DNA of 64,000 bases from the sequence record PQ671644.1; one strand, 5' to 3'. This DNA comes from Escherichia phage DCP80. Made by a program: the position numbers and the translations under genes. Shown here piece by piece: positions 7,905 to 30,710 of this stretch (its first letter is position 1; each line of letters starts with the position of its first letter). The notes under the pieces are model-generated. The model did not search any database. It saw only the letters and a program-made list of their open reading frames with translations, and was not told the DNA's origin.

Positions 7905-7929
7905 GGGAGCCTTCGGGTTCCCTTTTTTG
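7905..7929 (+). terminator. Rho-independent terminator, UUCG tetraloop
   Basis: GGGAGCCTTCGGGTTCCC followed by TTTTTT. Confidence 0.7.
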
Positions 7930-7930
7930 T

Positions 7931-7938
7931 TATAAATA
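7931..7938 (+). promoter_or_regulatory. T4-type late promoter TATAAATA
   Basis: GTTATAAATAAGGTAAAGGAGAAATT-ATG (7955). Confidence 0.65.
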
Positions 7939-7954
7939 AGGTAAAGGAGAAATT

Positions 7955-8753: not shown

Positions 8754-8759
8754 GGAGCT

Positions 8760-10859: not shown

Positions 10860-10898
10860 AATTAATCGGGGCTTCGGCCCCCTAAATGAGGAATTAAA

Positions 10899-13136: not shown

Positions 13137-13140
13137 TAGA

Positions 13141-13159
13141 AGGCCTTCGGGCCTTTTTC
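13141..13159 (+). terminator. Rho-independent terminator
   Basis: AGGCCTTCGGGCCT plus TTTTT. Confidence 0.7.
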
Positions 13160-13164
13160 AGCGT

Positions 13165-13172
13165 TATAAATA
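13165..13172 (+). promoter_or_regulatory. T4-type late promoter TATAAATA
   Basis: GCGTTATAAATAAT upstream of 13211. Confidence 0.6.
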
Positions 13173-13210
13173 ATATTGTAAATTAACCCCAAATAAAAGG
13201 AAACTAAACA

Positions 13211-13705
13211 ATGTCTACATTTGATATTTTTGCAGGTTCGTATGTATCGGTTTTCATGACTGAAGACATCACTAACAAACTCCCGGCTTTCGCAGGTTAT
13301 AAATTTGTTCCAGAAACGGGTGCTTTCCCTGAATCCGGTTCAGAGCGTCAGGTAATCGATGTTCCTAACTACTCTGATAACTATAACCGTAAACTGGTTG
13401 GTCGTGGTTCTGTTCCGGCTATTGACCTTACTGTTAACTACAAAGCTGGCTCTATCCATGATACTCTTTCTAAATTGTCTGATGACGGTAAACGCTTCCA
13501 GATTAAAATTGTATACTGGATGGACGGTACTTATACTGATGGTATCGCAATCATCTATAATGGCTTCTTGAGTTCAGACCGTACAACTGGTTCTGATAGT
13601 TCTGCTGTTCAGAAAGTGTTTACGTTTGAAGTTGATGGTGGCCCGGTTGCTCGTGCTATCGTTACAGGCAGCGGTGAGAAACCTACCGAAGAGCCTATCG
13701 TTTAA
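13211..13705 (+). CDS. Major tail tube protein
   Basis: 164 aa, own late promoter, directly upstream of chaperone pair and tape measure. Confidence 0.6.
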   Translation: MSTFDIFAGSYVSVFMTEDITNKLPAFAGYKFVPETGAFPESGSERQVIDVPNYSDNYNRKLVGRGSVPAIDLTVNYKAGSIHDTLSKLSDDGKRFQIKIVYWMDGTYTDGIAIIYNGFLSSDRTTGSDSSAVQKVFTFEVDGGPVARAIVTGSGEKPTEEPIV

Positions 13706-13710
13706 TGAAC

Positions 13711-13732
13711 GGGACCTTCGGGTCCCTTTTTT
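13711..13732 (+). terminator. Rho-independent terminator
   Basis: GGGACCTTCGGGTCCC plus TTTTTT. Confidence 0.75.
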
Positions 13733-13735
13733 GTT

Positions 13736-13743
13736 TATAAATA
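13736..13743 (+). promoter_or_regulatory. T4-type late promoter TATAAATA
   Basis: TTTATAAATATTGC upstream of the tail chaperone gene. Confidence 0.6.
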
Positions 13744-13776
13744 TTGCTATATAATAACCTAACCAAAGAGGCTGAT

Positions 13777-14133
13777 ATGAACTTAGATGAATTAATGGAA
13801 GCGGTAACCCCTGAAGGGTTGGAATTCCTGGAAGTAAAATTAAAAGACAAAACTTTTAAATTCTATTGTCAACCAATGGACCTGAAAACTTATCAACTTT
13901 TTACAATGAACAGAGACCTTGCTGCTGTTGCTCCTTACGTTATTATGAAAGGGATTGTTGATGTTGACCGTAACCCTATTTTTAAAACAGCAAAACAAGT
14001 AACAAACCTGCCCACATGGTTGCAGAGTGATTTATTCAACTACGTTTTCGCATTTACAACTCGTTTGCCAGAAGACGTTGAGATTGAACAAAGTTTAAAG
14101 CCGATTGGGTCAAAAGATTCCGCTACCGATTAA
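13777..14133 (+). CDS. Tail assembly chaperone, G-like
   Basis: Start moved to internal ATG with SD AAAGAGG (track ORF 13744); precedes frameshift partner and tape measure. Confidence 0.5.
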   Translation: MNLDELMEAVTPEGLEFLEVKLKDKTFKFYCQPMDLKTYQLFTMNRDLAAVAPYVIMKGIVDVDRNPIFKTAKQVTNLPTWLQSDLFNYVFAFTTRLPEDVEIEQSLKPIGSKDSATD

Positions 14134-14144
14134 TTCTTCGTGGA

Positions 14145-14462
14145 TTGCTTCCAGAGATTATTGATAGCATGTCATTGCATGAATTTAAAGAGCTCTATAT
14201 TATGGATACCTATTTGGAACCGCAAGGACCAAACGCAGACGAAATGAGAGCAGCCAGACAAATTCATGCTCAATATATGACATCTCCAAACATGACCGCA
14301 AAAGCTGCTAAGGAAATTAAAGTTACAAACTTTACAATGCTTGGTAAAAATGTGTTCAAAACTCAGGAAGACATCATTGAAGAGAATAAAATCAAACAGA
14401 AAGAGGCTATGGAGCTTCAATTCGGCGACCTTTTGGCCCAAATGAAAAAAGAGGAAAAATAA
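14145..14462 (+). CDS. Tail assembly chaperone T-like segment (probable -1 frameshift extension of G)
   Basis: ORF in -1 frame with no ATG start; slippery TTTAAAG near end of upstream gene. Confidence 0.45.
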   Translation: MLPEIIDSMSLHEFKELYIMDTYLEPQGPNADEMRAARQIHAQYMTSPNMTAKAAKEIKVTNFTMLGKNVFKTQEDIIEENKIKQKEAMELQFGDLLAQMKKEEK

Positions 14463-16877: not shown

Positions 16878-16904
16878 GGGGCTTCGGCCCCCATAAGGAA
16901 CAAT

Positions 16905-17465
16905 ATGATTAACAGTAAAGAAGTTGTCTTAACAGACATGAAACTAAGCGATAACGCTCAGGTGTTTACCTCCCAAACATTTACAGGGAAGGTACAACGT
17001 CGATTCTCCGGGATTCAATATTACACGCTGAAATTCAGTGCTCAGTATAACAAAAAAGATATTGCAGTTGTTAAAAGATTTTTGACAGAGTATAGATTTG
17101 GTAAACCATTTAACCTGCCGCTTCCTAAGTACTCCGGTTCAACTAGCACGGTAACTGGTAACGTTGCTGCTGCTATTGCTGCTCCAGCTGGTTCACGAAA
17201 GGTTAAACTTTCAGGATTCACGGGTCAGCTTGATGTTGGTACGGTTATTCAATTTGCTAACCATAAAAAATTATACCAAGTTGCATCAGATACAAGAGGT
17301 AACGGTGAACTTTCTATCGTTCCTAATCTGCGAGCTGCTGTACAAGTTGGTGAATTGATTAAGTACAGGAACATCGAAGGTAGCTTTATCCTTACAACTG
17401 ACTCTGTAGAATGGCCACAAACCGAACTGCAAACTATTGAACTAGAGGCGACAGAAAACGTATGA
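16905..17465 (+). CDS. Minor tail protein (distal tail)
   Basis: 186-aa ORF directly after tape measure. Confidence 0.45.
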   Translation: MINSKEVVLTDMKLSDNAQVFTSQTFTGKVQRRFSGIQYYTLKFSAQYNKKDIAVVKRFLTEYRFGKPFNLPLPKYSGSTSTVTGNVAAAIAAPAGSRKVKLSGFTGQLDVGTVIQFANHKKLYQVASDTRGNGELSIVPNLRAAVQVGELIKYRNIEGSFILTTDSVEWPQTELQTIELEATENV

Positions 17466-18124
17466 CAATTAATGAAATCAAAGCAGCGTTTGAAAAGCTT
17501 GGCACCAACCCAGATTTTCTGGAAGTGTACAACCTTTACAATGGTACGAGCAAAACATCACTAACGGTATCAGAAGTGCAATCAATTGGTTACGCGTACA
17601 ACATTGTTAAAATTCAGCTCAAACAAGATACATTATATCTAACTGATTGTGGTTATGACATCCTTTATAACGGAAATCTATATCTGGCATCAGGTGATTT
17701 CATGGGAATGGGAGCAATCTCTGATTCTAAAGAAATCAATAACAAAGGACTGTCTGTAACAATGGCTAACATCAAGCCCGAATTTGCAGACCGTGTTACA
17801 AGTGGACAATTTAAAAATGCTCCAGTTGAGTTAAGTATTTGTTTTATAAACCCTAATACTGGTGTTCCTGAAGTTGTTTATTCAGTTTTCTCTGGTTCAG
17901 TTGATTCTGTCCAGATAACGCTTTCTCCAGATTCTAATGGAACAGCTATCAGCAATAGCATTAAAGCTGAGTTAAATAGCATCTGGGAAATTCTGGCTTC
18001 TAAGCCGAGGGCTCATTGTTCTGATGCTGTACATCGTTCAACACCAGGCAATGAGAATGATATGTTCTTCAGCCGAATCGGTAAATGGAATTCTGAAGAG
18101 GTGTGGAAATCAGGTAAACGATAA
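17462..18124 (+). CDS. Minor tail protein, lambda L position
   Basis: 220 aa, overlaps previous stop; cysteines near C-terminus. Confidence 0.45.
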   Translation: MTINEIKAAFEKLGTNPDFLEVYNLYNGTSKTSLTVSEVQSIGYAYNIVKIQLKQDTLYLTDCGYDILYNGNLYLASGDFMGMGAISDSKEINNKGLSVTMANIKPEFADRVTSGQFKNAPVELSICFINPNTGVPEVVYSVFSGSVDSVQITLSPDSNGTAISNSIKAELNSIWEILASKPRAHCSDAVHRSTPGNENDMFFSRIGKWNSEEVWKSGKR

Positions 18125-18186
18125 GAGACCATATGGATACTGAACAAACTGCTTTAAAATTTAGTAAAATGCAATAGCCTAACCAG

Positions 18187-18208
18187 GGGACCTTCGGGTC
18201 CCTTTTTT
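18187..18208 (+). terminator. Rho-independent terminator
   Basis: GGGACCTTCGGGTCCC plus TTTTTT. Confidence 0.75.
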
Positions 18209-18211
18209 CGT

Positions 18212-18219
18212 TATAAATA
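18212..18219 (+). promoter_or_regulatory. T4-type late promoter TATAAATA
   Basis: CGTTATAAATAAAGT upstream of 18261. Confidence 0.6.
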
Positions 18220-18260
18220 AAGTAACAAAAGTTTAGAAATTAAAATAATTCTTAGGGGGA

Positions 18261-18677
18261 ATGATGTACGAAAGACATATCAAAATCATCAACATCATTG
18301 ATAAGTATCGTGGTGAAGAACATGTGTATGGATTAAATGATTGTAATATCCTTGTAGCAGATGTTATCGACGCACTATGTGGAACGGAGTATGCTGATAA
18401 ATTACGTGGAAGTTACGACAGCATAATCTCAGGGATGATTGTTGCAAAGGAAAAGGTTGGATTCTCCAACGCAAGACAAGCTCTTGTTAAACACGGTGAA
18501 AAAGTTGATTATCCGATGAACGGTGATTTCTGTATCATCAAGCACTTGAATGAAGGGAAAACCTTTTACGCAACAACCATTTATTGGAATGGGAAGGTTC
18601 TTCTAGAGAAAGATAATCATTATCAATGGTGTCTTTTTGAAAAAGACAATTACAAAGAATTCTTTAAGGTGGTATAA
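18261..18677 (+). CDS. Tail-associated protein, possible NlpC/P60-like peptidase (lambda K position)
   Basis: 138 aa with GLNDCN cysteine motif; position before tip protein. Confidence 0.4.
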
Positions 18678-18678
18678 A

Positions 18679-21600
18679 ATGGCAGTAGTAGCTATAGGTG
18701 TAATTGTTGCAGCGGCATCAGCAGGTGCTGCAGCGGCGGCCGCTGGTTTATCAATAGCATTATCTATTGGTATCGCCGTTGCAGTTGGTGCGTTAAACGC
18801 ATTAATGACATACAGCATGATGAATCAACAATCAGCAAGCTTCAACTCTCCTGATACTGGTTCAACATTAGGGACAGCAAGTAACCCAAGCACAGTTCTC
18901 CCGTTAGTTTATGGCGAACAACGTGTTGGTTCTATTGCAGTTTGGAAAGCTCTTGACAACCAAGACAGACGTCGCCTGGTACAAGTGTTTGCTGTTGCTC
19001 AGGGTGAAATTGATGGATTCAAACAGCTCTATATGGACAACAAGAAAATCTTCCGTGATGATTTGTTCTTCCGTAATGGCGTTGTGCAGAATGGACAGAT
19101 TCTTGACATCTATAAAAAAGCTGTTGAAGTTGAATTTGGTTGTGGTGGTCCAGGTCAGAAAGCTTCTGTTCTTGCTCAGAAATATCTGGGTAAAGGCGAA
19201 TGGCCAGATACAATGACCGGTAACAACGTTGCATGGTGTGTTATTGTTATGTACAAATCCAACGACCAGTTACAAGACGGTGTTGACATCCTCCAGCCAC
19301 AATCACAAGTTGCTCTGGATATTGTTGGGAAGAAAATCACAGACCTTACAACAGGTGTAGTTGGTCCATCTCAGAACGGTCCATCTCAGGCATACGATTA
19401 TTTCGTAACCCCAACCGGCCGTGGTGGTCTTGGAATCTCTGGTACTAAACTGGATATTGATTCCTTCCGTGAAGCTGCGTTTAAAGTATCAGGAGCCAAG
19501 CTTTATTCCAATGGTACGTTTGACCCGAACGCAACTGCTAAAGAAAACCTGACACAGCTGTGTGGTAGTTTCCAAGGATTTTGTTTAACTCAATTCGGTT
19601 TAATCTCTCTGGTTATTGATGAACCAGCTCCAGTTGCATGGTCTTTTACAGAGAACGAAGTTGAATTAAAAGATGTTTCCCTGAAAGATGGTGAATCGGA
19701 AAAAGACTGGAACGTATTAAACGTGTCTTATCAGGAACCTCGTCTTGATTACTCCAGCCAGATTCTGCGTTATCCTTCTGTTATTACCCCAGAATGGATT
19801 CAAGCAAACGGTGACCCGAAATCAAAAGACATTGAGTACAAATTTGTTAAAGATAAAGCACAGATTGATAAGTTAGCTTCTATTGAACGAAACAAAATGA
19901 GCCTGACTCGTAGCGTTACTTTCAGAACGTTTGCAACTTATACAGTACAAGTTTGGGACGTTATCGAATTTACTTTCGAAGAATTCAATCTTAACAAATC
20001 TAAATGGCGCGTAACTTCTGTTAACCGTGATGCAATCGGTGGTACCTTCGGTGCTGTAACGATTCAAGCATCAGAGTATAACGAACAAGTATACACCAAT
20101 ATGGATTTTGCTAACAACCCTAACTATAACGAATCAAACATTCCTAACGTTGGAGTTCTTCAGCAGCCAACCAATCTTCGTTGTCGTGCTGTAATGGCTA
20201 CTAACTTTGGTACAAGCTTCCTCGCAACATGGGACGCTATCCAAGATTACAACCGTATCGGATTCCGTGTAGAGTACAAACGCTCCGGTTCAAACAACTG
20301 GATTAACGGTGGTACGACTTCATATAATGAATTCCGTATCGAAGGTCTGGTTATGAATGATGGTGAGCTGATTGATGTACGAGTTTGTGCATACGGTTTG
20401 TTCGGTCGTTCAGAATGGGTAACACTGCAAGCTTCACAAGAGATTCCATATGACCTCCCAGGAGTCACAGGATTGCGTCTGGTGAACAATGCCGGTAATG
20501 CTAACACTACACTAGATAAAGACTTTATCTTCGCATGGGACGACCAGGGCGACCAGATACTGACAATTGATGGTGAGCGTGTGAAGTACAACCAAGTGTT
20601 CAGTCATTATCAGATTTATGTAACAGTTAATAACGTTGTACGTACCTACGTTACCAAAGATGTTGGATTCACGATTTCTTATGAAATCAACCGTGATATT
20701 GCTGGTATTGCTAAACGTGATGTTAAGATTGAAGTGCAACCGATTGGTGTACAACGCCGTTCAGGTCCTAAAGTTGGAATGACAGCAAGGAACAACCAGG
20801 CAACTGCGATTCAGAACTTCAACGCTACTCCAGGTTTTGGTTATATCGTTTGTTCATGGAATGACCCGATATCAATTCCAGATTGGGCAGGTACACAGAT
20901 TCAGTTCAGTAAGACTCCAGGATTTGAGACTCCACTTTATGCAACAACTTCCGACCGCTTCCAACAGTTTGTAGATATTGATGATGGCGATTACTATGTA
21001 AGAGCTGGTTGGTTTGACGTGTTCGGTGTTGATAATGAAATGGTTCTCTCCCAACCGATTTTTGTTTCTCTGAAATCGAAGGTGGACTGGACGCAGCAAG
21101 ACCAAGACCAGATTGATGACCTGTTGAACTTAACAGACCGTCTTGACCAGGCGATTGCTGATGCTCTTCTGTTAGCTGGACAACAAATGACAATCATGGA
21201 AAATCGTATCAACGAAACAACTGATGCGAAGATTTTAAATTCCAAAGCAACAACCCTTACTGAAGCTGGTGAGATGATTGCACAGCAGATTAACATTGTT
21301 AACTCTAACATGGATGAAATGTCTGCAACAATCACCAAACTTGACCAAGCTGTAACGTCTCCGACAGGTTCGGTTGCAACGCAGATTAATCAGGTTAAAG
21401 CTGAAATGGGTTCACAGATTGCATCGGTTGACCAGGAATCTAAAGCAAGTATCGATAAGTTAACAGGGGATATTAACTCCAGTTATTCATTAGCAGTTAA
21501 TGCTAATGGTCGTGTAGCTGGTATGAAGTTAATCGCTTCTAATGACCCAACTAAAGATACTGCAATCTATTTCACCGCAGACAAGTTTGCGATTACTTCT

Positions 21601-22437
21601 CAGACAGCTGGTGGAACAACGATTATTCCGTTTGCAGTACAAAACGGTCAGGTGTTTATGAACAGCGCATTGATTGCTAACGCATCAATCGGTTCAGCTC
21701 AAATCGCCAACGCAGCTATTAACAATGCTAAGATTTCTGATGCGGCTATCAACACAGCCAAAATCCAGGATGGAGCCATCACTAATGCTAAAATTGTTAA
21801 CGGTGCGATTGATAACGCTAAGATTGGTCAGTATATAAGAAGCAACGACTTTGTATCAGGTTCTCGTGGATGGAACATAGATAAAAGTGGTTATGCTGAA
21901 TTCAACAACGTAACAGTTCGTGGTAACATCTACGCGAATAATGGATTATTCAGAGGACGTATCGAAGCTACTGACGGTTATTTTAGTGGTACTGTTTACG
22001 CTAACAAAATCGAAGGTGATATCGTTACACCTGAGCGTGGTACAGTTGGATTGGACTTCCGTTGGGAAGGTGACCTCAGTGGTACAAGAAGAGTAATGCA
22101 ATTCGCCGGTGCTGATTATAAACGATTCCTGGATTCAAACTTAGTGTTAAGGATTTATGCTACATGGGAAAACAACGAATTCCGTGTTTATAGTTGTTCT
22201 TCAGCTGGTCATAGAACCGAATTGTTCTACTATCGTAACCCAGGACCATATGCAGGTGTTAAGGATTTCAGACTACAAGGTGTACCATTAGAACAGGCTG
22301 GTAGAGCTGGGTCTAACTGGATTGAAGTAACAAATACGGCGAATAGAAACGCTAGATACGGTTGGTTTACAACTGATGGAACAAGTACATCTTATGTTTG
22401 CGCATATCGTGCAGGTTCACAACGTTTAGTTATATAG
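18679..22437 (+). CDS. Tail tip assembly / central fibre protein, lambda I-J fusion
   Basis: N-terminus has Ala/Gly-rich segment and [12 protein letters not shown] like gpI (LPVLYGEMRVGS); remaining ~1100 aa J-like; start set to ATG after SD AAGGTGG. Confidence 0.7.
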
Positions 22438-22442
22438 TAAAA

Positions 22443-22458
22443 GGGGACTTCGGTCCCC
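22443..22458 (+). terminator. Terminator-type hairpin
   Basis: GGGGACTTCGGTCCCC. Confidence 0.55.
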
Positions 22459-22471
22459 TTAAGGATAGGAA

Positions 22472-22933
22472 ATGGAAGTAATGAGTTTGGCTGCATTTGT
22501 AAAATTAGTTGGTTGGTTAGTAGGAGCAATTGCTTTTGTTGTCGGTTCAATCTGGAGCGTAGGTAAAGGCATAGGTGCTATCAAGGGAAAGTTTATTGAT
22601 AACCCAATCAAGGAAGTTAAAGACGAAGTTAAAGCTTTACAGGATAATCTTTCTGAAGTTGAAAAGAAGATTGAATCTGTGGATATCAAACAGCAAGCTC
22701 TGATTGATTCTATCAAGACCAATAGTGATATGACAATGTTGCATATCGAAAAGATTTCAACACAGATGGATGGTATGAAGGAGTTAGTATTATCAAAGAA
22801 TGATGAAGTAAACCGCAGGCTGGCCGAGACTGAAAAACGTCAACAAGACCAGATTAATGAATTTCTGAAAGCTGCACTGGCTAAGGGAATTTCCAACAAC
22901 GTAAACTTTTCCGGAGACCAACGTGTACGATGA
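22472..22933 (+). CDS. Membrane-anchored coiled-coil protein, possible i-spanin
   Basis: 153 aa, N-terminal hydrophobic segment then charged coiled coil; same size and layout as lambda Rz. Confidence 0.4.
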   Translation: MEVMSLAAFVKLVGWLVGAIAFVVGSIWSVGKGIGAIKGKFIDNPIKEVKDEVKALQDNLSEVEKKIESVDIKQQALIDSIKTNSDMTMLHIEKISTQMDGMKELVLSKNDEVNRRLAETEKRQQDQINEFLKAALAKGISNNVNFSGDQRVR

Positions 22934-22958
22934 GTTCGATGGATTCTAAGAGGTTATT

Positions 22959-23426
22959 ATGAAAGCAATAGAGTACAAACATATGTTATACGAAAGACAA
23001 CATGGAATTTGTCTGCTATGTAAACTTCCGCTTGAAGATGTTAAAAGTTCCCATCTAGACCACGACCACGCTTTAACAGGTCCTAATGCTGGATTCTGCC
23101 GAGGACTTCTATGTCCTAGTTGTAACGTCTTGGAAGGAACTTTGCTGCATAAATTCAACAGAAGTGGATTAAAAAGTAAAACAACCTTTACAGCTTATCT
23201 TAATAACCTGCTATCTTATTATGCAAATCCACTGCATGAAAAGATACACCCTAATTTTATTAGAGATAAGGTGAAGGCTGTTTCACGGATGAGCAATCAA
23301 AGTATCATAGCTGAAATTGAAAAACTGACCTTTAACCTCCCAGCTGATAAGTCAAAGAAAGGACTTGTCAGTTTCTATCGTAAGGCTCTTAAGAAGTCCC
23401 TGGAGGACGTATGTCTGCAAAGTTAA
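22959..23426 (+). CDS. 49: Endonuclease VII-like Holliday junction resolvase
   Basis: CLLC...HLDHDH...GLLCPSCN...HKFNRSGLK...IHPNF closely follows T4 gp49 as recalled. Confidence 0.8.
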   Translation: MKAIEYKHMLYERQHGICLLCKLPLEDVKSSHLDHDHALTGPNAGFCRGLLCPSCNVLEGTLLHKFNRSGLKSKTTFTAYLNNLLSYYANPLHEKIHPNFIRDKVKAVSRMSNQSIIAEIEKLTFNLPADKSKKGLVSFYRKALKKSLEDVCLQS

Positions 23427-23583
23427 AGGTTAATAAAGATTTACTAAAAAAAGTGCTCATGGCGGCCCTGATAAGCTCCTTGGTATGGAATCATATAGTA
23501 TCACCTATAATTCTAATAACCACAGGTGTAAGTATCACGATTCCGATGCATGAAGTACTTCAACCGTTAATGCTATTACTATA
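23410..23583 (+). CDS. Small membrane protein, possible holin
   Basis: 57-aa ORF below track cutoff, SD GGAGGA, one hydrophobic helix; overlaps end of gene 49. Confidence 0.3.
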
Positions 23584-23592
23584 AGGAATGAT

Positions 23593-24144
23593 ATGAGAGA
23601 CCCTAATAAAGGTAAAGCTCGGAAGGTCAAGGAAGACCTTCAAAAGTGGGCGATTAAGGAAGATGACGTTTTCAGTAAGAAATTAACAAAGGCTTCCAAG
23701 CTGGCATCAGTTCAGTTACAGAGATATATCAACGGTAACATCAAAGGAGGTGCAACACCTTTTACACAGAAAGCAGTGGGATTCCAATTTAGATATGATA
23801 AGTTTGGTTCCTGGAACAGAATCTATATAAGAGATGCACAAGCGGCTTATCTTGGTGACCTGATTGATGATGACAAACGCTTTAAGAAGTTTGTACCAAT
23901 CGCTGGCAGGAACACAAACAAGTTCGGTAACATAATTGGTTTAAGGAATTTCAGAAACCTTATTCCCGTTAAACAGATGCATAACGGACGAATGAGAACA
24001 ATTCTCATCAAGCCATCAGCTAAAGGTATAAAAAGATTCGTTGCTGTACAGAAGGAAATTTCCCCACGGAAAACATTAGGTTCATGGAAAGAAATGGAAA
24101 AGAGAATGATAAATAACATTAACAGAGTCATTCACTCCAAATAA
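23593..24144 (+). CDS. Hypothetical basic protein
   Basis: 183-aa ORF, Lys/Arg-rich. Confidence 0.4.
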   Translation: MRDPNKGKARKVKEDLQKWAIKEDDVFSKKLTKASKLASVQLQRYINGNIKGGATPFTQKAVGFQFRYDKFGSWNRIYIRDAQAAYLGDLIDDDKRFKKFVPIAGRNTNKFGNIIGLRNFRNLIPVKQMHNGRMRTILIKPSAKGIKRFVAVQKEISPRKTLGSWKEMEKRMINNINRVIHSK

Positions 24145-24157
24145 ACTAAGGATTAAC

Positions 24158-24457
24158 ATGTACAAGTACAGATATTATAACGAAGAATCATTACTAACGT
24201 TAAAGATAAACGGTGTGAATCCACCAGGTTGTTCATTACCAGAACCAGCTAAAAGTTTAAAGAAATTCCAGAAGGTAAATGATAACGATTACTTTGCTGT
24301 GTCAACTTTGTTCAAGACACCAAAGGTTTCTTATAAGAAAGGGGAAGTTGTTAAACTAGAAGGATTCCCGTTAAGGAGAGAGGCTGTGTGTATCGGTGAT
24401 TTGTTACACACAGAGAAGGGGTACAGAATTAAAAGTTATATCTTCCAATTCTGTTAA
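24158..24457 (+). CDS. Hypothetical protein
   Basis: 99-aa ORF. Confidence 0.35.
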   Translation: MYKYRYYNEESLLTLKINGVNPPGCSLPEPAKSLKKFQKVNDNDYFAVSTLFKTPKVSYKKGEVVKLEGFPLRREAVCIGDLLHTEKGYRIKSYIFQFC

Positions 24458-24464
24458 TTTTAGT

Positions 24465-24776
24465 TTAGTTGAGTTTTTTACAATTAGTTATCAATAAACC
24501 GTTGACATAGAATTCACGTTCCCCACCACGAATCCATGTACCATACATGATTCCATCTCGTTCACGTTTCAGAGCAGGGATTTTCTTCCCGTCGATTTCA
24601 ACAGAACTAGAGCGCAAAGGTGGTGAACGGAATTCCTCTGAACTGAAAGATTCGATAACTGTAACGAACTCCACTTTAATCTCAGGACTGTAACACTGGA
24701 ACTTTTGTACTTCCATTGCATAACTTGATGCAGAGATAAGAAGCAATGATGCGATGATTGTTTTTAAAGTTTTCAT
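24465..24776 (-). CDS. Secreted protein with signal peptide, opposite strand to late operon
   Basis: MKTLKTIIASLLLISASSYA signal-like N-terminus; SD GGAGA before ATG. Confidence 0.5.
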   Translation of the reverse strand: MKTLKTIIASLLLISASSYAMEVQKFQCYSPEIKVEFVTVIESFSSEEFRSPPLRSSSVEIDGKKIPALKRERDGIMYGTWIRGGEREFYVNGLLITNCKKLN

Positions 24777-24868
24777 ATAGTCTCCAAAGTAATAATCTTA
24801 TTTAGTGTTTCAATAGTATAAGATAAGTATAACACATAAATTCTAAAGCGTAAACCTAAGGAGGTTTT

Positions 24869-25333
24869 ATGTCAGAAGCTTTTAACATGCTGATGAAAGA
24901 TGAAGGCATCGAGTATCATCTTTATAAATGCACGCAAGGATACTGGACAATCGGGATTGGTCATATGATTTCCCGTGATAAACAAACAGCTGAACGATTC
25001 CTTAATGAGAAATTTGGGAAGTGTGTAATAAGTAAGGAGCAGGCTATCCAGTTGTTCAAGCAAGATTATAATCATGCAGTATTAGGTGCACAGAGTATCG
25101 TAAGATTAGACACCTACCGTGAATTAGCATTGTCTAATATGGTTTTCCAGATGGGACTTGGTGGTGTACTGAAGTTCAAGAAAATGATAGCTGCACTGAA
25201 GATACAAGACTGGAACGAAGCTTATAAGCAGGCTTTAGATTCTACATGGTATAAACAAACACCTAATCGTGCCAAACGTGTGGCCGAGGTACTAAGAGAT
25301 GGGAAACAAGCATATGTCAAACATTACTCCTGA
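24869..25333 (+). CDS. e: Lysozyme, T4 e-type (GH24)
   Basis: EG..Y.C..GYWTIGIGH, NMVFQMG and WYKQTPNRAKRV match T4 lysozyme motifs. Confidence 0.85.
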   Translation: MSEAFNMLMKDEGIEYHLYKCTQGYWTIGIGHMISRDKQTAERFLNEKFGKCVISKEQAIQLFKQDYNHAVLGAQSIVRLDTYRELALSNMVFQMGLGGVLKFKKMIAALKIQDWNEAYKQALDSTWYKQTPNRAKRVAEVLRDGKQAYVKHYS

Positions 25334-25526
25334 AATGATTGCTGAACTATACGTTGAGAATCATAACTTAAAGCGTCAATTCAAAGCTGCTAACGATTTC
25401 GTCGGGCAGGTAGCCATGGCTCTCCAGATGGATTCTGAAGACTCTATCGTAACTTATGAAGCATTGTCTAACAAGTTAGCTTCCGCGCTCGCCGGGGCCT
25501 CCCAGGGCGTCCAGGAAAAGCAATAG
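25299..25526 (+). CDS. Hypothetical protein
   Basis: 75-aa ORF overlapping lysozyme end; weak. Confidence 0.25.
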   Translation: MGNKHMSNITPEMIAELYVENHNLKRQFKAANDFVGQVAMALQMDSEDSIVTYEALSNKLASALAGASQGVQEKQ

Positions 25527-25534
25527 TTACTTTC

Positions 25535-25554
25535 CGGGGGCCCCCTCCCCGGGA
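25535..25554. promoter_or_regulatory. GC-rich near-dyad element CCGGGGGCCCCCTCCCCGGG, candidate cos nicking site
   Basis: Isolated GC-rich imperfect twofold symmetry in AT-rich region ~200 bp upstream of Nu1-like gene. Confidence 0.4.
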
Positions 25555-25759
25555 TGTTACGCCCACCCATTCTTCTGTTTACCAGAAATTTTTTTGGGAT
25601 AGCTAACACAACTTTATAATTATAAAATATTTTTTAAAATTAAAAATAGTTTTGAAAATAAATTTTGATTTTAAAATTAATTTTACAATTCATGAACTTA
25701 TAAGTTCTTAATTTCTAAAAGATTTTCAAGAGCTTTTCCAAAACTGATGAGGAATTAAA

Positions 25760-26251
25760 ATGTCAACCAAAGACCCGATTTATCTTAACCAAAAACAAAT
25801 CTCCGAATCCTACGGAGTTACGCGCCAGACGATTGCAGAGTGGCAGAAGCGTGAAAATCCAATTCCGTGGATTGCTGGACGGGGATATCCGATGCCTGAT
25901 GCCGGAGTTTGGATTGCAGAAAATTTTATAAAAACTTTAAGACAGAACAACGAAGCACAGGATTTTAATTATCACAAGACAAGGAAGATGGCAGCAGAAG
26001 CGGACATTGCTGAAAGGGAAAACATGCTCGAGGCGCAATCCGTTATCAGAACAGATTTCGTAGAAGAGGAGTTAAGGAATTTTGTTACAAGAGTTAAGGA
26101 AACCCTCCGCGTCATTCCATTGAAGTATGCAGAAGATATTGCTATAAGAGCAACAAGCACATCAGAAGTTAAGAAGGCATTAAGGGAAGCGATTGATAAA
26201 TCCCTGAACGAGATTGACCTGTTGATGTTGTTTGAAGAGCATGAAGAATAA
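25760..26251 (+). CDS. Terminase small subunit, lambda Nu1-like winged HTH
   Basis: KQISESYGVTRQTIAEWQKRE parallels Nu1 KQLADIFGASIRTIQNWQEQG; downstream coiled region matches Nu1 layout. Confidence 0.55.
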   Translation: MSTKDPIYLNQKQISESYGVTRQTIAEWQKRENPIPWIAGRGYPMPDAGVWIAENFIKTLRQNNEAQDFNYHKTRKMAAEADIAERENMLEAQSVIRTDFVEEELRNFVTRVKETLRVIPLKYAEDIAIRATSTSEVKKALREAIDKSLNEIDLLMLFEEHEE

Positions 26252-26281
26252 TCCATTCCCCCAATAAAAAAGGGACCCGAA

Positions 26282-26298
26282 GGTCCCTTACGTCATTC
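26282..26298. terminator. Bidirectional terminator hairpin between convergent genes
   Basis: AAAAAA-GGGACCCGAAGGTCCC. Confidence 0.65.
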
Positions 26299-26532
26299 CC
26301 ACTTAATCGTTGCTACTCGCTCATACACGAGACGTAAATCAATCTTTCCTTTTACGGTATATGTTCTTTGAACTTCCCCTTGTGCTTCCACTGTGAGGCT
26401 ATCAATTAATTCATCGTTTTGATACAATCGATATAGGTTTTTCTGACGGTTTGAAATTGTTAAAGTACGTTGAACTTCTTCTTTAGTATCTTCCAATTTA
26501 TGGAGAGCTTTTAGACTAGTTGATTCGTACAT
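26293..26532 (-). CDS. Hypothetical protein
   Basis: 79-aa ORF. Confidence 0.4.
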   Translation of the reverse strand: MYESTSLKALHKLEDTKEEVQRTLTISNRQKNLYRLYQNDELIDSLTVEAQGEVQRTYTVKGKIDLRLVYERVATIKWE

Positions 26533-26563
26533 AGTTTTCCTTTTTAAAGGGGACCGAAGTCCC

Positions 26564-26890
26564 TTATGCGTATAAGTGTTTTTCTTTCTTACGAAGACAG
26601 TTTTCAGAAGCTGTCAGGAGCTGCAAGTTACTTGGAGCGTTGTTCTTGCGGTTAAAATCGATATGGTCAATGTGCATACCCTCAGGAACTTCAGAATCGT
26701 TATCAAGCATCCACACGATTCGGTGAGCATACTCGTTATTATGAACCGGGTGGAAAACATGGATATAACCAGAAGGTAATTCGTAACCAGCTTCTTTGCC
26801 AGCGTGCTTACCAGTGGTGTAAATCAGTTTGTCATCAACGATTGCATAGTGAGCTTTAACGATGTCGAGAGTAATTTTAGTACGTGCCAT
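26564..26890 (-). CDS. HNH endonuclease
   Basis: HIDHIDFNRKNNAPSNLQLLTASEN HNH motif. Confidence 0.7.
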   Translation of the reverse strand: MARTKITLDIVKAHYAIVDDKLIYTTGKHAGKEAGYELPSGYIHVFHPVHNNEYAHRIVWMLDNDSEVPEGMHIDHIDFNRKNNAPSNLQLLTASENCLRKKEKHLYA

Positions 26891-26908
26891 TTGATATACC
26901 TTTTAAAA

Positions 26909-26957
26909 ATGAAGCACCGGAATTGATGCTTCGCGTTTTCATACTTTTATTTATAAC
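26909..26957 (-). promoter_or_regulatory. Intergenic cassette: TATAAATA, then hairpin with loop TCAATTCCGG
   Basis: Minus-strand reading TATAAATAAAAGTATGAAAACGC-GAAGCA-TCAATTCCGG-TGCTTC-ATTTTT. Confidence 0.5.
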
Positions 26958-26969
26958 AGCTTTTCGGGC

Positions 26970-27152
26970 TTATTCAGAAGTCAGAATAAATTTTTGATAC
27001 TGTTTACCAGTTATCTTGTATCTGATGAAGTTGAACAAATCGAACAAATATCCAAGAGGAATCAGAGCAATCAGAAGTGGTGCCATGATGAACATCAGGA
27101 TTGCTTGGATAACAAACAGAATTGTTTCACCCAGAAATTTTAAAATAAACAT
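26970..27152 (-). CDS. Small membrane protein
   Basis: 60 aa, two hydrophobic segments. Confidence 0.4.
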   Translation of the reverse strand: MFILKFLGETILFVIQAILMFIMAPLLIALIPLGYLFDLFNFIRYKITGKQYQKFILTSE

Positions 27153-27185
27153 AGTTCTCCCGTTGGGGCCGAAGCCCCAGATAAG

Positions 27186-27401
27186 TTAGCGAATTGATTT
27201 TTGTTCTTTAGCGCGATTCTTAATACCAAGTCCTTGCATCGTGGCTTCGATAACCTCGATTGCTTTAACACGTTTTTCATACTCTGCCAGAGTGATTTGT
27301 TTTTTGGCGAATTGTACATAAAGGGCAGACATAGCTTCGTAACTGTTCATAGGATTTCTCTTTAAAGGGAGACACCGGAATTGATGTCTCGTTGTTTTCA
27401 T
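27186..27401 (-). CDS. Hypothetical small protein (true start probably the internal ATG near 27347)
   Basis: Track start lies inside the TATAAATA motif; internal ATG has SD AAAGAG. Confidence 0.35.
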   Translation of the reverse strand: MKTTRHQFRCLPLKRNPMNSYEAMSALYVQFAKKQITLAEYEKRVKAIEVIEATMQGLGIKNRAKEQKSIR

Positions 27402-27418
27402 ACATTTATTTATAACGG
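27369..27418 (-). promoter_or_regulatory. Intergenic cassette: TATAAATA, then hairpin with same loop and covarying stem
   Basis: Stem GAGACA/TGTCTC versus GAAGCA/TGCTTC in the 26909 copy; loop TCAATTCCGG identical. Confidence 0.5.
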
Positions 27419-27422
27419 TCTT

Positions 27423-27713
27423 TTAACGCTTTTTAAAACCACCGAAGAAGGTGCCAGATAATGATTGAGCGATTTTAGAAGCTTCATAGTTGTTTGATTC
27501 AACTTCACCATACTTCCAACCTTTACCAAGGAGTTTCAACCATTTCAATCTAGCGATTGTCACATCATGACCTGCGCAAAGGAGTTCAAATTCTTCCAGT
27601 TCATCATTAAGTAGATAAGCAAGTTTTTCTTTATCCACAGCGTATGTCCAATTGGTACCTTCGAATTCGAAGAAAACTGAATCACCGTGGGTTTCTACAT
27701 TTTTAATCTTCAT
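27423..27713 (-). CDS. Hypothetical protein
   Basis: 96-aa ORF. Confidence 0.4.
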   Translation of the reverse strand: MKIKNVETHGDSVFFEFEGTNWTYAVDKEKLAYLLNDELEEFELLCAGHDVTIARLKWLKLLGKGWKYGEVESNNYEASKIAQSLSGTFFGGFKKR

Positions 27714-27904
27714 TAGATTTCCTTTACAATAAATTTATAAGTTACTTGGGACTCTTTAAAGACAGCTTCCGTTGCCCATTCTTCAGGTTTTTTCGAAAGC
27801 TCTGTGTGATAAAGCATTGCAGCTTCACCCTCTTGTGCTTCCAAAGCTTCTATGTAGCTTCGGCCTTCTTTAAGTTTAATAACACCGCAATCTATGATTC
27901 TCAT
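27713..27904 (-). CDS. Hypothetical protein
   Basis: 63-aa ORF. Confidence 0.35.
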   Translation of the reverse strand: MRIIDCGVIKLKEGRSYIEALEAQEGEAAMLYHTELSKKPEEWATEAVFKESQVTYKFIVKEI

Positions 27905-28215
27905 TTCTTGTCCAGTAGTTGTTGGTAAAATTCGATATGAGCATAAACATCTTGAATCCCGTGTAGGTAATCATCAAAGGTGATGTCCAGGTCTTCAAAG
28001 AAGTTATGATAAATTTCTTGTAGTTTGGTATAACCGTTTTCGTTAGTCATAAGTACCTCGTTGTTTTCATAATTTTATTTATACTGATTAATACTGGTTT
28101 AAATGGCGCCACAACGTGGTTCTGGATATACTATGTTTCTTCAGAACAGATTTCTTATCTTTACGACGAGCATTTTTATACTCGTCTGCAATTTGATTTA
28201 ACTTCTCGTTGGTCA

Positions 28216-28947
28216 TTAAAATTTTACGCATAACAGGTTGTCCAGTTGGTCTTCATGGGTTTCGATTAAGATTTCAGATTCCAGAGCTTCAGCAGCCTGA
28301 ATCATTGTGGCAGTATCACCACCAGCTTTAGCAACGTGAATCACAGTATCGAATTTACGTTTGTAAAGATTTTTCAGTTTAACTTCTTTAGTTTTCTGTG
28401 CAAAGTGTTTTTCAGATTTACGTTTAACTTCAACCAGTTCTTCTTTAACAACTTCAACTTCTTCTTCAGCTTCCTGGATAGCAACGTTTGCTTTCTTCAG
28501 AGCAGCATGTTGTGCACGAATGATTTCCATCATTTCTTCCACAGATAATTCCTCAAGATTGTTGATGTCAAATTTGACAACTTCTTTCTTTTCAACATGG
28601 TGATTAGAATTAACGGTATCGATTTCGTAAATCCAAGTTTTGTCACCGCGACGAGTCATTTCCAGGTTCTGCTGGATATAACCTTTACCTACTTTGTGAA
28701 TCACACGAGCTGAATTCCAATCAGTATGAACTACACAGATTGAATTTTCAAATTCTGCAACAAAGTAATCTCCCTCACCAAAATCAACTGCTTTAGCTTT
28801 AACTGCACGATACAGAGAACGATTAGCTGAACCAATTTCTTGTAACAAAGATTTAACAGAACTAGCATGAATTACTTTGGTTGCATTTTGTACAGACATG
28901 TTGCTTTCAGCTTGGTTTTCGCATTTTTTAAAAAGTTTGATAATCAT
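28216..28947 (-). CDS. Hypothetical protein with C-terminal charged coiled coil
   Basis: 243-aa ORF, no family recognised. Confidence 0.45.
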   Translation of the reverse strand: MIIKLFKKCENQAESNMSVQNATKVIHASSVKSLLQEIGSANRSLYRAVKAKAVDFGEGDYFVAEFENSICVVHTDWNSARVIHKVGKGYIQQNLEMTRRGDKTWIYEIDTVNSNHHVEKKEVVKFDINNLEELSVEEMMEIIRAQHAALKKANVAIQEAEEEVEVVKEELVEVKRKSEKHFAQKTKEVKLKNLYKRKFDTVIHVAKAGGDTATMIQAAEALESEILIETHEDQLDNLLCVKF

Positions 28948-29772
28948 GTGTTTTCCTTTATTTGTTAATCGTGTTATTATTTAGAATTAAAAAGTGATGT
29001 GTAATTCTTTGTTGATTTCAAAGATGACAGTTGCTAATGTCAAGTTGTGTTCTTTACACCAATCAGCACGTTTAGCCGGTGGCAATTTGTTTAACGCACA
29101 GAAGATTTTCATTAATTTAATCTGATAAGAATTCATGGTGACCTCAAGTGTTTCGATGTTTGTTAGGGTTTAAAAAAGAGGTTGTTCACCTCGTCGCTTT
29201 CATACATTTATTTATACACTAATTTTCGGCTCATTAGACAATCAGAAAAGTTCAATCCGGATTCAATCGCGTCAGGAGAATTTCCATGATAATATTTATC
29301 TCTTTATACTCACAAAAAACATTGAAACACATTTTGCAGTTTTTGGACTTTTAATCAAAAAAGGCTGTTTTTGATATTTCCGGGGGGTGCCTATGCCTTC
29401 CGGAGCACTTTTTGAGGCAAAAGTTATAAGAAACCTATTTTAATATATCAAAAGGTAATAACAAAGGCCTTTTTTCCCTCAAAAAACGTCAGAAAAAGGC
29501 TGTTTTTTCAGCTTATTTTGAGCCTTTTTTGAAGGTTCATTTTTGGGACTTTTAATCAAAAAACAAGGGAATTTTTCGGGAGCAGTACAGGGGTACTATC
29601 AGATGATAGGAGCTATCATTTAGAAGGGAGAATTGTGATTACTTATGACCGTTATACGATTGTATCGCGATTATTTGGTCAAATAACGACGAAATAATCA
29701 AAATAAATCATCGAAACACTTAGAAAACAGGCTGTTTTAGGTATAAAAATGGCCCCTTTCGGAGCCTAAAAT

Positions 29773-29979
29773 TTATTTCATACGCAGGTATTTTTCATAA
29801 CTAACTTTTGACAGAGCCAAATAGTAAGCTGCATCTTTTTCTCCCGATAATTTACCTTCAGCAACTGTTGCACAATCTTCTTTGAAAGTTGCTTCCCAGG
29901 AAAATCCATCAAGCCAATCGGAAAATTGTTGTTCGTTCATATTAACCTCTGTAATGTCTGTTGTAATGGTGTACTGCAA
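29773..29979 (-). CDS. Hypothetical protein
   Basis: 68-aa ORF. Confidence 0.35.
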   Translation of the reverse strand: MQYTITTDITEVNMNEQQFSDWLDGFSWEATFKEDCATVAEGKLSGEKDAAYYLALSKVSYEKYLRMK

Positions 29980-30288
29980 TTTCTGTGCAAAGGTCTTCGA
30001 AGACCAATGGGATTATGTTTTCTCGGTAGACAACATAACTGTACTGTCTGTAGGTGTAGACCTCTTTATATTTCTCGAAGAACATAAACAGGTCTTGATT
30101 AGCTGTAACTTCTAACGGGGTGATTTTCCCGGCTGCATCAACTATCATACTTCCTCCTTATTAACTTAATAATAGGCTCCCGCTCAGAAACCTATGATAA
30201 GGTACCACACATGAATTTAATCAAAGGTCTTCACATCACTAAAGACCTTTTGTTAAACACATGAATCAGGTCATCACTCCTGATACTT

Positions 30289-30609
30289 TTATTTATAACG
30301 GGATTTATTCATCCATTCAAATATGCCAGGGTTCCATTCGATGTTACCCATCGCTACATAATGATTGATTGCTTCTCGCAGAGACACCTGGAAGAATTCG
30401 GATTCGTCAAGTAATGAAACAATGATTTCCCCTTGTGCCTGTAAATCATCAACTGTCATCATGGAAAGAATTTCATATGCTGATTGAATTTCGTCTTCTG
30501 TGAAATCTGTGTCGAACCAATCATTAAGGTTATCATCAGATTTGTAATTATTGTAATAAGCCATACCTTCGATAACCAGATTGATAATTTCATTTACGTT
30601 GTTCATAAT
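30289..30609 (-). CDS. Hypothetical acidic protein
   Basis: ~106 aa from ATG near 30609; track ORF 30289..30768 reads through the N-run. Confidence 0.4.
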   Translation of the reverse strand: MMNNVNEIINLVIEGMAYYNNYKSDDNLNDWFDTDFTEDEIQSAYEILSMMTVDDLQAQGEIIVSLLDESEFFQVSLREAINHYVAMGNIEWNPGIFEWMNKSRYK

Positions 30610-30710
30610 TTTCTCTTTGTGTTTGGTTGATATGATAATGATACACCCTTTTGATGAGGTTGTAAACCCCTTATTGCAAATACATCTGGCATTGAAACAA
30701 ATAAATGCCA

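Follow-up and report, generated by a model that had tools for sequence, protein, structure and literature searches.

Regulatory units in which a promoter is combined with a stem-loop are known from T4-like phages. In the promoter-early stem-loops (PeSL) the stem-loop immediately precedes the promoter, for which it serves as a terminator (PMC4122927, Fig. 3 legend), the promoter being either a sigma-70-like early promoter with −35 and −10 elements or, in the promoter-middle stem-loops (PmSL), a Mot-box middle promoter (Arbiol et al., 2010, PMC2839356; Comeau et al., 2014, PMC4122927). T4 late promoters consist of an 8-bp TATA box approximately one helical turn before the start of transcription, with AT-rich sequence downstream and without a −35 element (Geiduschek and Kassavetis, 2010, PMC2988020). 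The operators of gp43 in T4 and RB69 are leader hairpins with the same top 10 bases, loop included (PMC3014915). None of the three components, a T4-type late promoter, a repeated regulatory cassette, and a leader hairpin, is thus new in itself. What we consider to be new is a late-promoter cassette with a downstream stem-loop and a conserved AAUUCC loop, found in an undescribed small genome that seemingly borrows the T4 programme. It is encountered in the sequence record of Escherichia phage DCP80 (PQ671644.1), of which a stretch of 64,000 nucleotides (the window) was analysed, and more precisely in the first 30,710 nucleotides of the window, designated contig A (Table 1).

The pattern TATAAATA plus AA[AT][GT]TATGAAA[AG]C[AG]ACGAG is present in four copies on the minus strand (c1–c4) and in a weaker fifth copy (c5). 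With up to three mismatches allowed, the 26-nt pattern is found at positions 27390–27415 (0 mismatches), 28059–28084 (3) and 29192–29217 (2), and in none of 100 shuffled sequences; a repeat finder groups all five copies and adds 26935–26964, which has a 1-nt indel, and 30277–30306. Each cassette is placed in a short gap that precedes a small gene of the minus strand (HNH with 108 amino acids (aa), then 54, 49, 49, and 68 aa), so that a recurrent motif before five small genes, the starting point of an earlier note made from these letters, stood up, the fifth copy being the weak one. The motif up to TAT is the generic start site of the whole promoter family, and the remainder, GAAAAC[AG]ACGAG(G), is a leader of 12 nt whose last part is a Shine-Dalgarno block (GAGG). 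Because ACGAGG in c3 is a Shine-Dalgarno sequence 5 nt before the ATG, the repeat can be read as a complete promoter-to-Shine-Dalgarno expression cassette. c5 has only the box and the start site (TATAAATA plus AAAGTAT) in common with the other four.

The box itself is not restricted to the cassettes. TATAAATA occurs 17 times in the window where 3.8 occurrences are expected, and 16 of the 17 are in contig A, all 16 co-oriented with the surrounding genes. Eleven boxes are on the plus strand, in the arm with the virion genes, and five on the minus strand, in the accessory arm. Every virion gene block of contig A is headed by a box, and several of the plus-strand boxes are found directly 3′ of UUCG-loop terminators. 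When 34 sites from contig A and its relatives L101, L102, and L143 were pooled, the upstream sequence proved to be unconserved except for a preference for G/T, the downstream sequence was A/T-rich, and T-R-T was found at positions 5–7 after the box (TATAAATA-N4-TRT). There is no −35 element at the boxes, and a sigma-70 scan found no site at any cassette. An exact 8-mer without upstream conservation, followed by AT-rich sequence and TRT, matches the definition of T4 late promoters (PMC2988020), for which reason TATAAATA is here taken to be a T4-type late promoter. As in T4, the boxes are sited before late genes (virion, lysis, packaging) and on either strand (PMC2988020). The predicted +1 is the purine 6 nt after the box, as judged from the TRT pattern and the T4 spacing rule (PMC2988020). 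By analogy with T4, the boxes would be recognized by gp55 together with gp33 and the gp45 clamp. It should be noted, however, that unlike in T4 the boxes stand in a siphovirus-like genome of 30.6 kb without recognizable gp55, gp33, or gp45, that the family of contig A has the TRT start motif and that the 12-nt leader is kept in only one subset of the promoters.

In c1 and c2 a 22-nt insert follows directly after the leader. The best geometry for both is a hairpin of 8 bp with a 6-nt AAUUCC loop (approximately −11 kcal/mol, RNAfold), and in all copies, including those of the relatives, the predicted free energy is between −10 and −12 kcal/mol. In the mRNA the hairpin would extend from +11/+12 to +32/+33 and end about 20 nt before the start codon. 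c1 and c2 differ at two stem pairs, both by double compensatory changes. Two hairpins with identical loops and compensatory stems had been reported in the earlier note as 6 bp with a 10-nt loop, which is the same structure read conservatively.

How these hairpins have changed can be followed in the relatives, which came from protein searches. Two of them are very close to contig A, L142 (Logan SRR29999939) with 94% and L136 (SRR10828603) with 95% nucleotide identity. L143–L145 (SRR27732226, SRR27732229, SRR14574106) are more distant (approximately 70–84% nucleotide identity; HNH protein 71% identical), and L101, a contig of 31.6 kb (ENA ERZ14207148), is the most diverged, with a large terminase (TerL) of 72% and an HNH protein of 55% identity. 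In L143–L145 both orthologous sites still have the hairpin, with the sequences GAGUCAUC-AAUUCC-GAUGGCUC and GAGGCAUC-AAUUCC-GAUGGCUC; here, too, the loop is invariant and the stem covaries, so the conservation of the loop among relatives that the earlier note had expected was found. The sample thus comprises four distinct hairpin sequences from three lineages. In their alignment 98% of the cells are paired; sliding the 3′ partners lowers this to 32–54%. Double changes are seen at two pairs (G-C/A-U in one and A-U/G-C/U.G in the other), one pair changes from U.G to U-A, and one mismatch, G-G, occurs. The two G.U pairs exist in the sense strand only, the other strand having A.C mismatches there, from which it follows that the structure most probably belongs to the RNA. 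All six loop positions are invariant and the 4-bp upper stem (CAUC/GRUG) has only one, compensated, change, between genomes in which the leader a few nucleotides upstream differs at 6–9 of 16 positions.

Such constancy is not a general property of hairpins behind these promoters. Behind the late promoter of the capsid gene (5731–5790, plus strand) there is at +6 a strong hairpin, GGGACUUCUAACGAGGUCCC (z = −5.7), whose orthologues in L101 (14025) and L102 (4811) differ in both stem and loop; the constancy of the loop is therefore particular to the AAUUCC hairpin. The capsid hairpin is likely a 5′ stabilizer of the most abundant late message.

With a covariance model exactly two copies of the AAUUCC hairpin were found in each genome that has it, none in L101, in the chromosomal relatives from Escherichia coli or in the T4-like contigs of the window, and no further copies in 298 kb of DNA from relatives and T4-like phages. 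A loop-centred scan of the gathered loci confined the 8-bp version to the clade of contig A. Scans for the promoter, for leader plus hairpin, and for promoter plus hairpin in IMG/VR, JGI metagenomes, and GTDB genomes returned nothing or single chance matches on unrelated contigs, none of the 13 matches to box plus CATCAATTCCG that were inspected forms the hairpin, and a search of IMG/VR with TerL found no relatives. In L101 the hairpin is lacking at both sites: the promoters run straight into the Shine-Dalgarno sequence, leaving a clean alignment gap of 22–23 nt. Since, moreover, only 2 of the 16 late promoters of contig A carry it, the hairpin is to be regarded as an accessory insert rather than as part of the repeated unit. 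The protein encoded after c2 differs in parallel. The basic tail GLGIKNRAKEQKSIR of the 54-aa protein is present in the window and in L143 and is absent from the 43-aa orthologue in the hairpin-less L101.

Table 1. Positions of contig A, the five cassettes, and associated features in the window, counted from its first nucleotide.
Feature	Position	Strand	Basis
Contig A, siphovirus-like, carrying all cassettes	1..30710		111-bp overlap; L142 across the junction
Two tandem MotA-box middle-type promoters, TGCTT[CT]A-N12-TATAAT, TGn extended −10, facing the accessory arm	803..975	-	motif
Strong UUCG-loop terminator, end of the minus-strand accessory arm	26270..26289	-	terminator scan
HNH endonuclease gene, 108 aa, 3′ of c1	26564..26890	-	PHROG HNH matches; Pfam HNH_3, 7e-15
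c1 hairpin GAAGCAUC-AAUUCC-GGUGCUUC, then AUUUUUAAAAGG (Shine-Dalgarno); HNH start codon 26890	26911..26932	-	fold
c1 TATAAATA box; predicted +1 26942; leader AUGAAAACGC	26948..26955	-	TRT pattern, T4 spacing rule
54-aa gene after c2; basic C-terminal tail GLGIKNRAKEQKSIR	27186..27350	-	gene lists, tblastn
c2 hairpin GAGACAUC-AAUUCC-GGUGUCUC, then CCUUUAAAGAGAAAUCCU-AUG	27369..27390	-	fold
c2 TATAAATA box; predicted +1 27401; leader AUGAAAACAAC	27407..27414	-	motif, TRT pattern
Three-gene module (49 + 63 + 96 aa) between c3 and c2	27423..28050	-	tblastn, gene lists
c3, minimal form: box 28076-83, predicted +1 28070, GAGG 28056-59, ATG 28050	28056..28083	-	motif
c4 weak hairpin GAGGU-GAACA-ACCUC + U6, terminator-like; 49-aa gene starts 29136	29178..29192	-	terminator scan
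c4 TATAAATA box; predicted +1 29203; leader AUGAAAGCGAC	29209..29216	-	identical in L136, L142
c5: box 30290-97 and structured leader of ~85 nt before the 68-aa gene (ATG 30148)	30200..30297	-	z = −4.6

Our favoured explanation, to which we give an even chance, combines late-gene expression cassettes with an operator hairpin. The cassettes, each with the TATAAATA late promoter, the TRT start, the leader of about 12 nt, and GAGG, would head successive units of the accessory arm; the structural genes would share TATAAATA with them, and the accessory arm would additionally be fed by the MotA-box middle-type promoters. The boundaries of gene modules in which the relatives differ also coincide with cassettes. 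The 22-nt insert would fold in the mRNA as the 8-bp AAUUCC hairpin before the 54-aa and HNH genes, selection would maintain the pairing, the loop, and the upper stem (CAUC/GRUG), and a protein binding to the hairpin would set the translation, stability, or read-through of these two late messages. Candidate binders would be the 54-aa product itself or a factor of a T4-like helper phage. The U-run after the hairpin may add leaky-terminator activity, and the operator could possibly act through termination.

Taken by itself, the role of the hairpin as a sequence-specific RNA operator is a more tentative proposal, for which we see somewhat less than an even chance. It is made because an invariant loop and upper stem on a covarying lower stem, about 20 nt before the start codon, have the look of a protein-bound operator. 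Recognition of the loop by a protein, which the earlier note had named as one option, is plausible. That the basic tail of the 54-aa protein tracks the presence of the hairpin over three lineages is one lead in the same direction. The gp43 operator of T4 is a precedent: it is an upstream hairpin tens of nucleotides before the start, with loop and upper stem identical across diverged phages (PMC3014915). The loop of that operator differs, however, having 8 nt with UAAC rather than AAUUCC, and each genome has two of the hairpins described here, which belong to late messages, the gp43 operator belonging to an early one. The nut sites of phage lambda are also similar in that a promoter-proximal hairpin with fixed loop and variable stem is preceded by a short conserved linear motif and in that two copies per genome co-vary with the lineage. 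Unlike at the nut sites there is no boxA consensus, no GNRA-like loop, and no identified N-like protein, and the hairpins stand behind T4-type late promoters.

Several findings weigh against the favoured explanation. There are only four distinct hairpin sequences, and the observed number of covarying pairs, two, was attained in 195 of 500 shuffles. That the loops within a genome are identical could be due to gene conversion alone. L101 does without the hairpin, which is thus dispensable, the 54-aa protein is without a family or phage match, and only three lineages connect it with the hairpin. As to the promoters, family searches among the open reading frames (ORFs) of the element did not find gp55, gp33, or gp45, so that the use of TATAAATA depends on an unproven helper phage or on an unrecognized factor. 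And finally, the c1 hairpin with its U5 scores as an intrinsic terminator, a simpler role for which no specific loop is needed.

This last point is the core of the alternative that survives best. The hairpin would be only a leaky intrinsic terminator or attenuator, which stops most transcripts shortly behind the late promoter, stops read-through from upstream genes as well, and keeps the HNH and 54-aa proteins low, the loop being meaningless. The terminator scan accepts c1 (8 bp with four G-C pairs, followed by AUUUUU) and c4 (5 bp with U6 behind them), L143 has retained U5 in both c1 and c2 and L144 in c1, and the A-tract of the leader can pair with the U-run. Furthermore, the slot in L101 that is orthologous to c4 is occupied by a sigma-70-type promoter, a UUCG hairpin with a U-run, and the gene, the same order recurring there. 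In window c2, however, the stem is followed by no more than UUU, and the scan does not report a terminator there. A terminator does not require an invariant AAUUCC, which is not a tetraloop, and the other terminators of the element have UUCG-type loops; moreover, an efficient terminator 35 nt past their only dedicated promoter would silence conserved genes. We therefore consider termination alone to be unlikely.

The c4 hairpin should be looked at in this connection because the earlier note had listed it as a third hairpin, followed by T6. It does exist. However, it has only 5 bp and is the minimum free energy (MFE) structure only of the first 48 nt; in the full 76-nt RNA from leader to AUG it is not, the CCUC arm pairing with the real Shine-Dalgarno sequence instead. 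c3 has no hairpin of its own.

A finding that is part of the favoured explanation, and from which a second alternative also starts, is that the copies resemble each other more within a genome than between orthologues. In the promoter extension, paralogues within a genome agree at 13 of 16 positions (window) and 16 of 16 (L143), orthologues at only 7 and 10 of 16. The segment after the hairpin shows the reverse, with 21 of 24 and 16 of 21 positions identical between orthologues versus approximately 14 of 23 between paralogues. The two copies in L101 share a version of their own, ATTATATCAAA, and also the presence or absence of the hairpin is concerted within genomes. Genes have been gained, lost, or moved at the cassettes. 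The three-gene module between c3 and c2 and a 47-aa gene just upstream of c3 have no homologue (tblastn) in the 21.2 kb of L101 covered by the gene-content comparison, and the homologue of the 68-aa gene, which follows c5 in the window, is just upstream of c1 in L101. In L142 a 105-aa gene is missing together with its early-type promoter, the indel ending 9 nt before the c5 box. Such gene indels at cassettes are few, and the window and L142 are otherwise colinear. Since likeness within genomes exceeds that between orthologues and since genes have been inserted or deleted at the cassettes, the copies appear to be kept alike by recombination or gene conversion and to behave like recombining cassettes.

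In this respect the cassettes resemble PeSLs and PmSLs, which likewise are near-identical promoter-to-Shine-Dalgarno cassettes between small ORFs, are homogenized within a genome, and show insertions, deletions, and relocations at their edges (Arbiol et al., 2010, PMC2839356; Comeau et al., 2014, PMC4122927). PeSLs are further characterized by mini-circles that arise when flanking cassettes recombine. The cassettes of contig A nevertheless are not members of the PeSL family: the promoter is the late TATAAATA, the −35/−10 hexamers approximately 17 nt apart are lacking at the cassettes, the stem-loop is downstream, inside the transcript, and in only two or three of the five copies, and the genome is not that of a T4-like myovirus. 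Of the mobile regulatory cassette comparable to T4-type promoter-early stem-loops that the earlier note had suggested, the mobility thus holds for the concerted evolution and the indels at the edges and fails for the hairpin, an accessory insert carried by 2 of 16 promoters and by none in L101; the comparison with promoter-early stem-loops had to be given up, the promoter being late rather than sigma-70-like and the stem-loop being on its other side.

One could go further and regard the hairpin as nothing but a PeSL-like recombinogenic linker without RNA function, the compensatory changes having arisen from repair of the palindrome at the level of DNA. The concerted evolution, the indels and relocations at the edges, the clean 22–23-nt indel that separates the window from L101, and the PeSL precedent (PMC2839356, PMC4122927) are all in line with this proposal. 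It does not explain why loop and upper stem are constant where the adjacent leader has diverged by 40–55%, nor why G.U pairs are confined to the sense strand, and the sigma-70 promoter with upstream stem-loop that defines PeSLs is not present. We regard it as improbable.

Still less probable is that the hairpin is a 5′ stabilizer, protecting late or processed read-through mRNAs against 5′-end-dependent decay. It is close to the 5′ end, in c1 pairing of the A-tract with the U-tract would leave a single unpaired 5′ nucleotide, and a strong 5′ hairpin is likewise found behind the capsid late promoter. But c2 and both copies of L143 keep 11 single-stranded nucleotides at the 5′ end, and from work on the ompA leader a single-stranded 5′ end of 11 nt is too long for protection. 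A fixed loop is not required, and such hairpins are found at only 3 of the 16 late promoters.

Very improbable, in our view, is a function of the conserved block as a DNA site, CATCAATTCCGRTG, for example one that is nicked by the adjacent HNH enzyme, the nick then loading gp45 and activating late promoters in cis. In favour of this it can be said that the HNH gene is beside c1, that the block is nearly palindromic, and that late transcription in T4 is enhanced by nicks in the non-transcribed strand, also at a distance (PMC2988020). For duplex DNA, however, covariation of the lower stem and the use of G.U pairs would be pointless, and L101 has retained the HNH gene and is yet without the site.

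What is left, namely a leaderless mini-ORF, a switch that hides the ribosome-binding site (RBS), and a RegB site, has jointly hardly any probability. A mini-ORF at the ATG of GTATGAAAAC was considered because the predicted +1 in the window is the A of this ATG; the triplet is ATC or GTA in c3 of L142, in L101, and in L143, and neither length nor frame is conserved. An RBS-hiding switch would follow a known T4 paradigm, which is described also for the HNH gene mobE (PMC3014915); in c1 and c2, Shine-Dalgarno and AUG are outside the helix and about equally accessible in late and read-through RNA (unpaired probability 0.62 vs. 0.55 for c1 and 0.76 vs. 0.70 for c2). The target of T4 RegB is the tetranucleotide GGAG, which is absent from the c1 and c2 hairpins, their loops and the Shine-Dalgarno regions, so that the cleavage of the RegB type at the loop for which the earlier note had suggested a test is unlikely. 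A MotA box within the c1 hairpin, GGTGCTTCA, was also rejected: the sequence downstream is TATATC rather than a TAnnnT −10 element, the start would be inside the ORF, and c2 reads TGTCTC.

The switch paradigm has to be mentioned for another reason. With the leaders of e, soc, 49, I-TevI, and mobE in T4, in which a late promoter is combined with an RBS-hiding hairpin (PMC3014915; Gibb and Edgell, 2007, 2009, cited therein), the locus described here shares a late promoter directly before a free-standing HNH gene and a hairpin in the leader. In c1 and c2, however, the RBS is outside the hairpin, which is wholly 3′ of the late start and therefore part of early and late RNAs alike. The situation at c3 is another one. 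In read-through RNA (28040–28130, minus strand) a segment 5′ of the box, ACCACGUUGU, pairs with the Shine-Dalgarno sequence ACAACGAGGU, and in c3 of L142 (approximately 2593–2683) the upstream arm is a different one, GUUACCUUGU, the pairing being retained. The predicted unpaired probability of the c3 Shine-Dalgarno sequence is 0.65 in late RNA versus 0.24 in read-through RNA. In these folding models c3 fits the paradigm of the T4 gene e and I-TevI switches.

At c5 the leader (30200–30284, minus strand; −28 kcal/mol, z = −4.6) is predicted to form a 6-bp 5′ hairpin and a long irregular hairpin; its sequence is identical in L142. An early-type promoter, GTTTACA-N17-TATCAT, precedes the 105-aa gene. 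A further TATAAATA box, with Shine-Dalgarno sequence and ATG, is located at 6286–6330 (plus strand) inside the ORF for the protease-capsid fusion (5789–7789) and is kept in L101 (14573) and L102 (5365), which suggests a nested late transcript for a shorter product.

For the interpretation of these promoters it is important to know in what kind of genome they are found. The window has runs of N at 30711–30720, 40994–41040, 49791–49800, 56743–56760, and 62887–62940, and consists therefore of several concatenated contigs. ORFs that cross such runs, for example 30289–30768, are artefacts, and an insertion of the element into a T4-like genome, with 30289–30768 as chimeric ORF, is ruled out by the run of ten N at 30711–30720, which is a contig join. 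The first 111 bases of contig A are repeated exactly at 30600–30710, and the 94% identical L142 reads straight through the junction of the ends. It follows that contig A is a genome of 30,599 bp, either circular or circularly permuted. The real gene at the junction is the 105-aa gene, which on the minus strand extends from window position 7 across the junction to 30289.

Contig A encodes a gpA-type large terminase, a Nu1-like small terminase, portal, and a protease-capsid fusion, the tail genes for major tail protein, tape measure, distal tail protein, J-like tip, and fibres, a lysozyme, and the HNH protein. A gp37-like fibre N-terminus is encoded at 10899–13136. At 22959–23426 there is a full-length homologue of T4 endonuclease VII with 50% identity to gp49 of T4-like phages. 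The approximately 45 ORFs of contig A have no match to a polymerase, helicase, primase, integrase, or repressor, and none to gp55, gp33, gp45, MotA, or AsiA. Among 50,697 phage records no nucleotide match to contig A was found, also not for the region 26500–30600 in blastn searches with near and distant settings, and its terminase is less than 30% identical to that of any of them. The 243-aa and the 54-aa protein gave no match in tblastn, the 243-aa product was not on record in an exact-protein look-up, and the Rfam 15 covariance models found nothing relevant in 1–30710 at E ≤ 1.

The remaining contigs (30721–64000) are 91–97% identical to T4-like coliphages of the Gaprivervirus type, for example vB_EcoM_VR20, and encode gp52, motA, ndd, denB, rIIB, rIIA, gp39, and a gp46-like protein. 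The segments 34833–40993 and 42925–49790 are two T4-like variants that are approximately 96% identical and inverted relative to each other, which points to two T4-like strains co-occurring in the source sample.

Not only the late boxes of contig A are of the T4 type. The two MotA-box promoters (975 and 827, minus strand) are inside a tandem repeat (717–1013), and the same motif is found in L101 (8578 and 6764), L102 (135), and L137 (9389) and five times in the T4-like contigs of the window, there facing annotated or likely genes. The comparison with the chromosomal relatives L138 and L141 is instructive, as these have almost no TATAAATA boxes and no AAUUCC hairpin. Because it has both MotA and late boxes where such relatives are nearly boxless, the clade of contig A looks like a siphovirus lineage that has been re-wired to the regulatory cascade of T4.

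These chromosomal relatives (L138–L141) are widespread elements of approximately 30 kb in E. coli and Enterobacter (chromosomal or Logan contigs), with TerL approximately 52% identical, and are listed in 427 collection blocks. They share the virion module with contig A and differ from it by a serine recombinase, a GntR-like regulator, and a TIR-domain gene; one of them has a fibre domain like that of T4 gp36. L137 is a Logan contig of 23.8 kb with genes of the T4-baseplate type, of which the region 9284–15700 shares with contig A a pair of genes (49 and 243 aa) in the same order; it uses TATAAATA-N4-TRT late promoters and a MotA-box promoter.

Two non-coding regions of contig A may also be mentioned. 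The stretch 29220–29780 (560 bp) contains repeats, AAAAAGGCTGTTTT(T) four times and TTTGGACTTTTAATCAAAAAA twice, and a 12-bp hairpin at 29378–29405; it may serve as an origin, or as a control region that separates two transcription units of the accessory arm. Beside the genome junction there are two to three copies of a palindrome with an 11-bp stem, CATCTGGCATT-N10-AATGCCAGATG (window approximately 75–250, minus strand; L142 230–400), one of which stands in L142 in the place of the 105-aa gene. This palindrome could be a packaging (cos) or recombination site.

Contig A thus has an endonuclease VII suited to branched DNA of the T4 style, yet no recognized T4 transcription factors. That it depends on a T4-like helper phage is possible, with at best an even chance. 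More doubtful is the full proposal that it is a satellite-like virus, which would use promoters for the MotA and the gp55/gp33/gp45 of the helper, would bring its own endonuclease VII for resolving branched DNA of the T4 type, and would employ the AAUUCC hairpin as a private operator for tuning the HNH protein as a packaging or homing nuclease. The cassettes would then be the late switch, with tuning either by the element, for example via the 54-aa protein, or by the helper. Alternatively, the boxes are possibly read by an unrecognized sigma-like factor among the small ORFs. With satellites such as PLE of ICP1, P4, and (capsid-forming) phage-inducible chromosomal islands, (cf)PICIs, contig A has in common a small genome without recognizable machinery for replication or transcription and the regulatory signals of a larger phage found together with it. 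Unlike these satellites it has a complete virion set (terminase, portal, capsid, tail, and fibres), and there is no integrase in its clade. In the literature we found no paper that describes such a T4-wired small siphovirus-like element.

What the cassettes mean can be considered at three levels. As recombining units they extend the concept of regulatory cassettes as recombination linkers from the early promoters of T4-like phages to late promoters and to a different, small genome. The hairpin is a compact candidate for an RNA operator that comes with its natural controls, namely two copies per genome, covarying stems, and a relative in which it is knocked out. And if the dependence on a helper should prove to be true, contig A would be the first satellite-like parasite of T-even-type coliphages, a virus that delegates its expression programme in a new manner.

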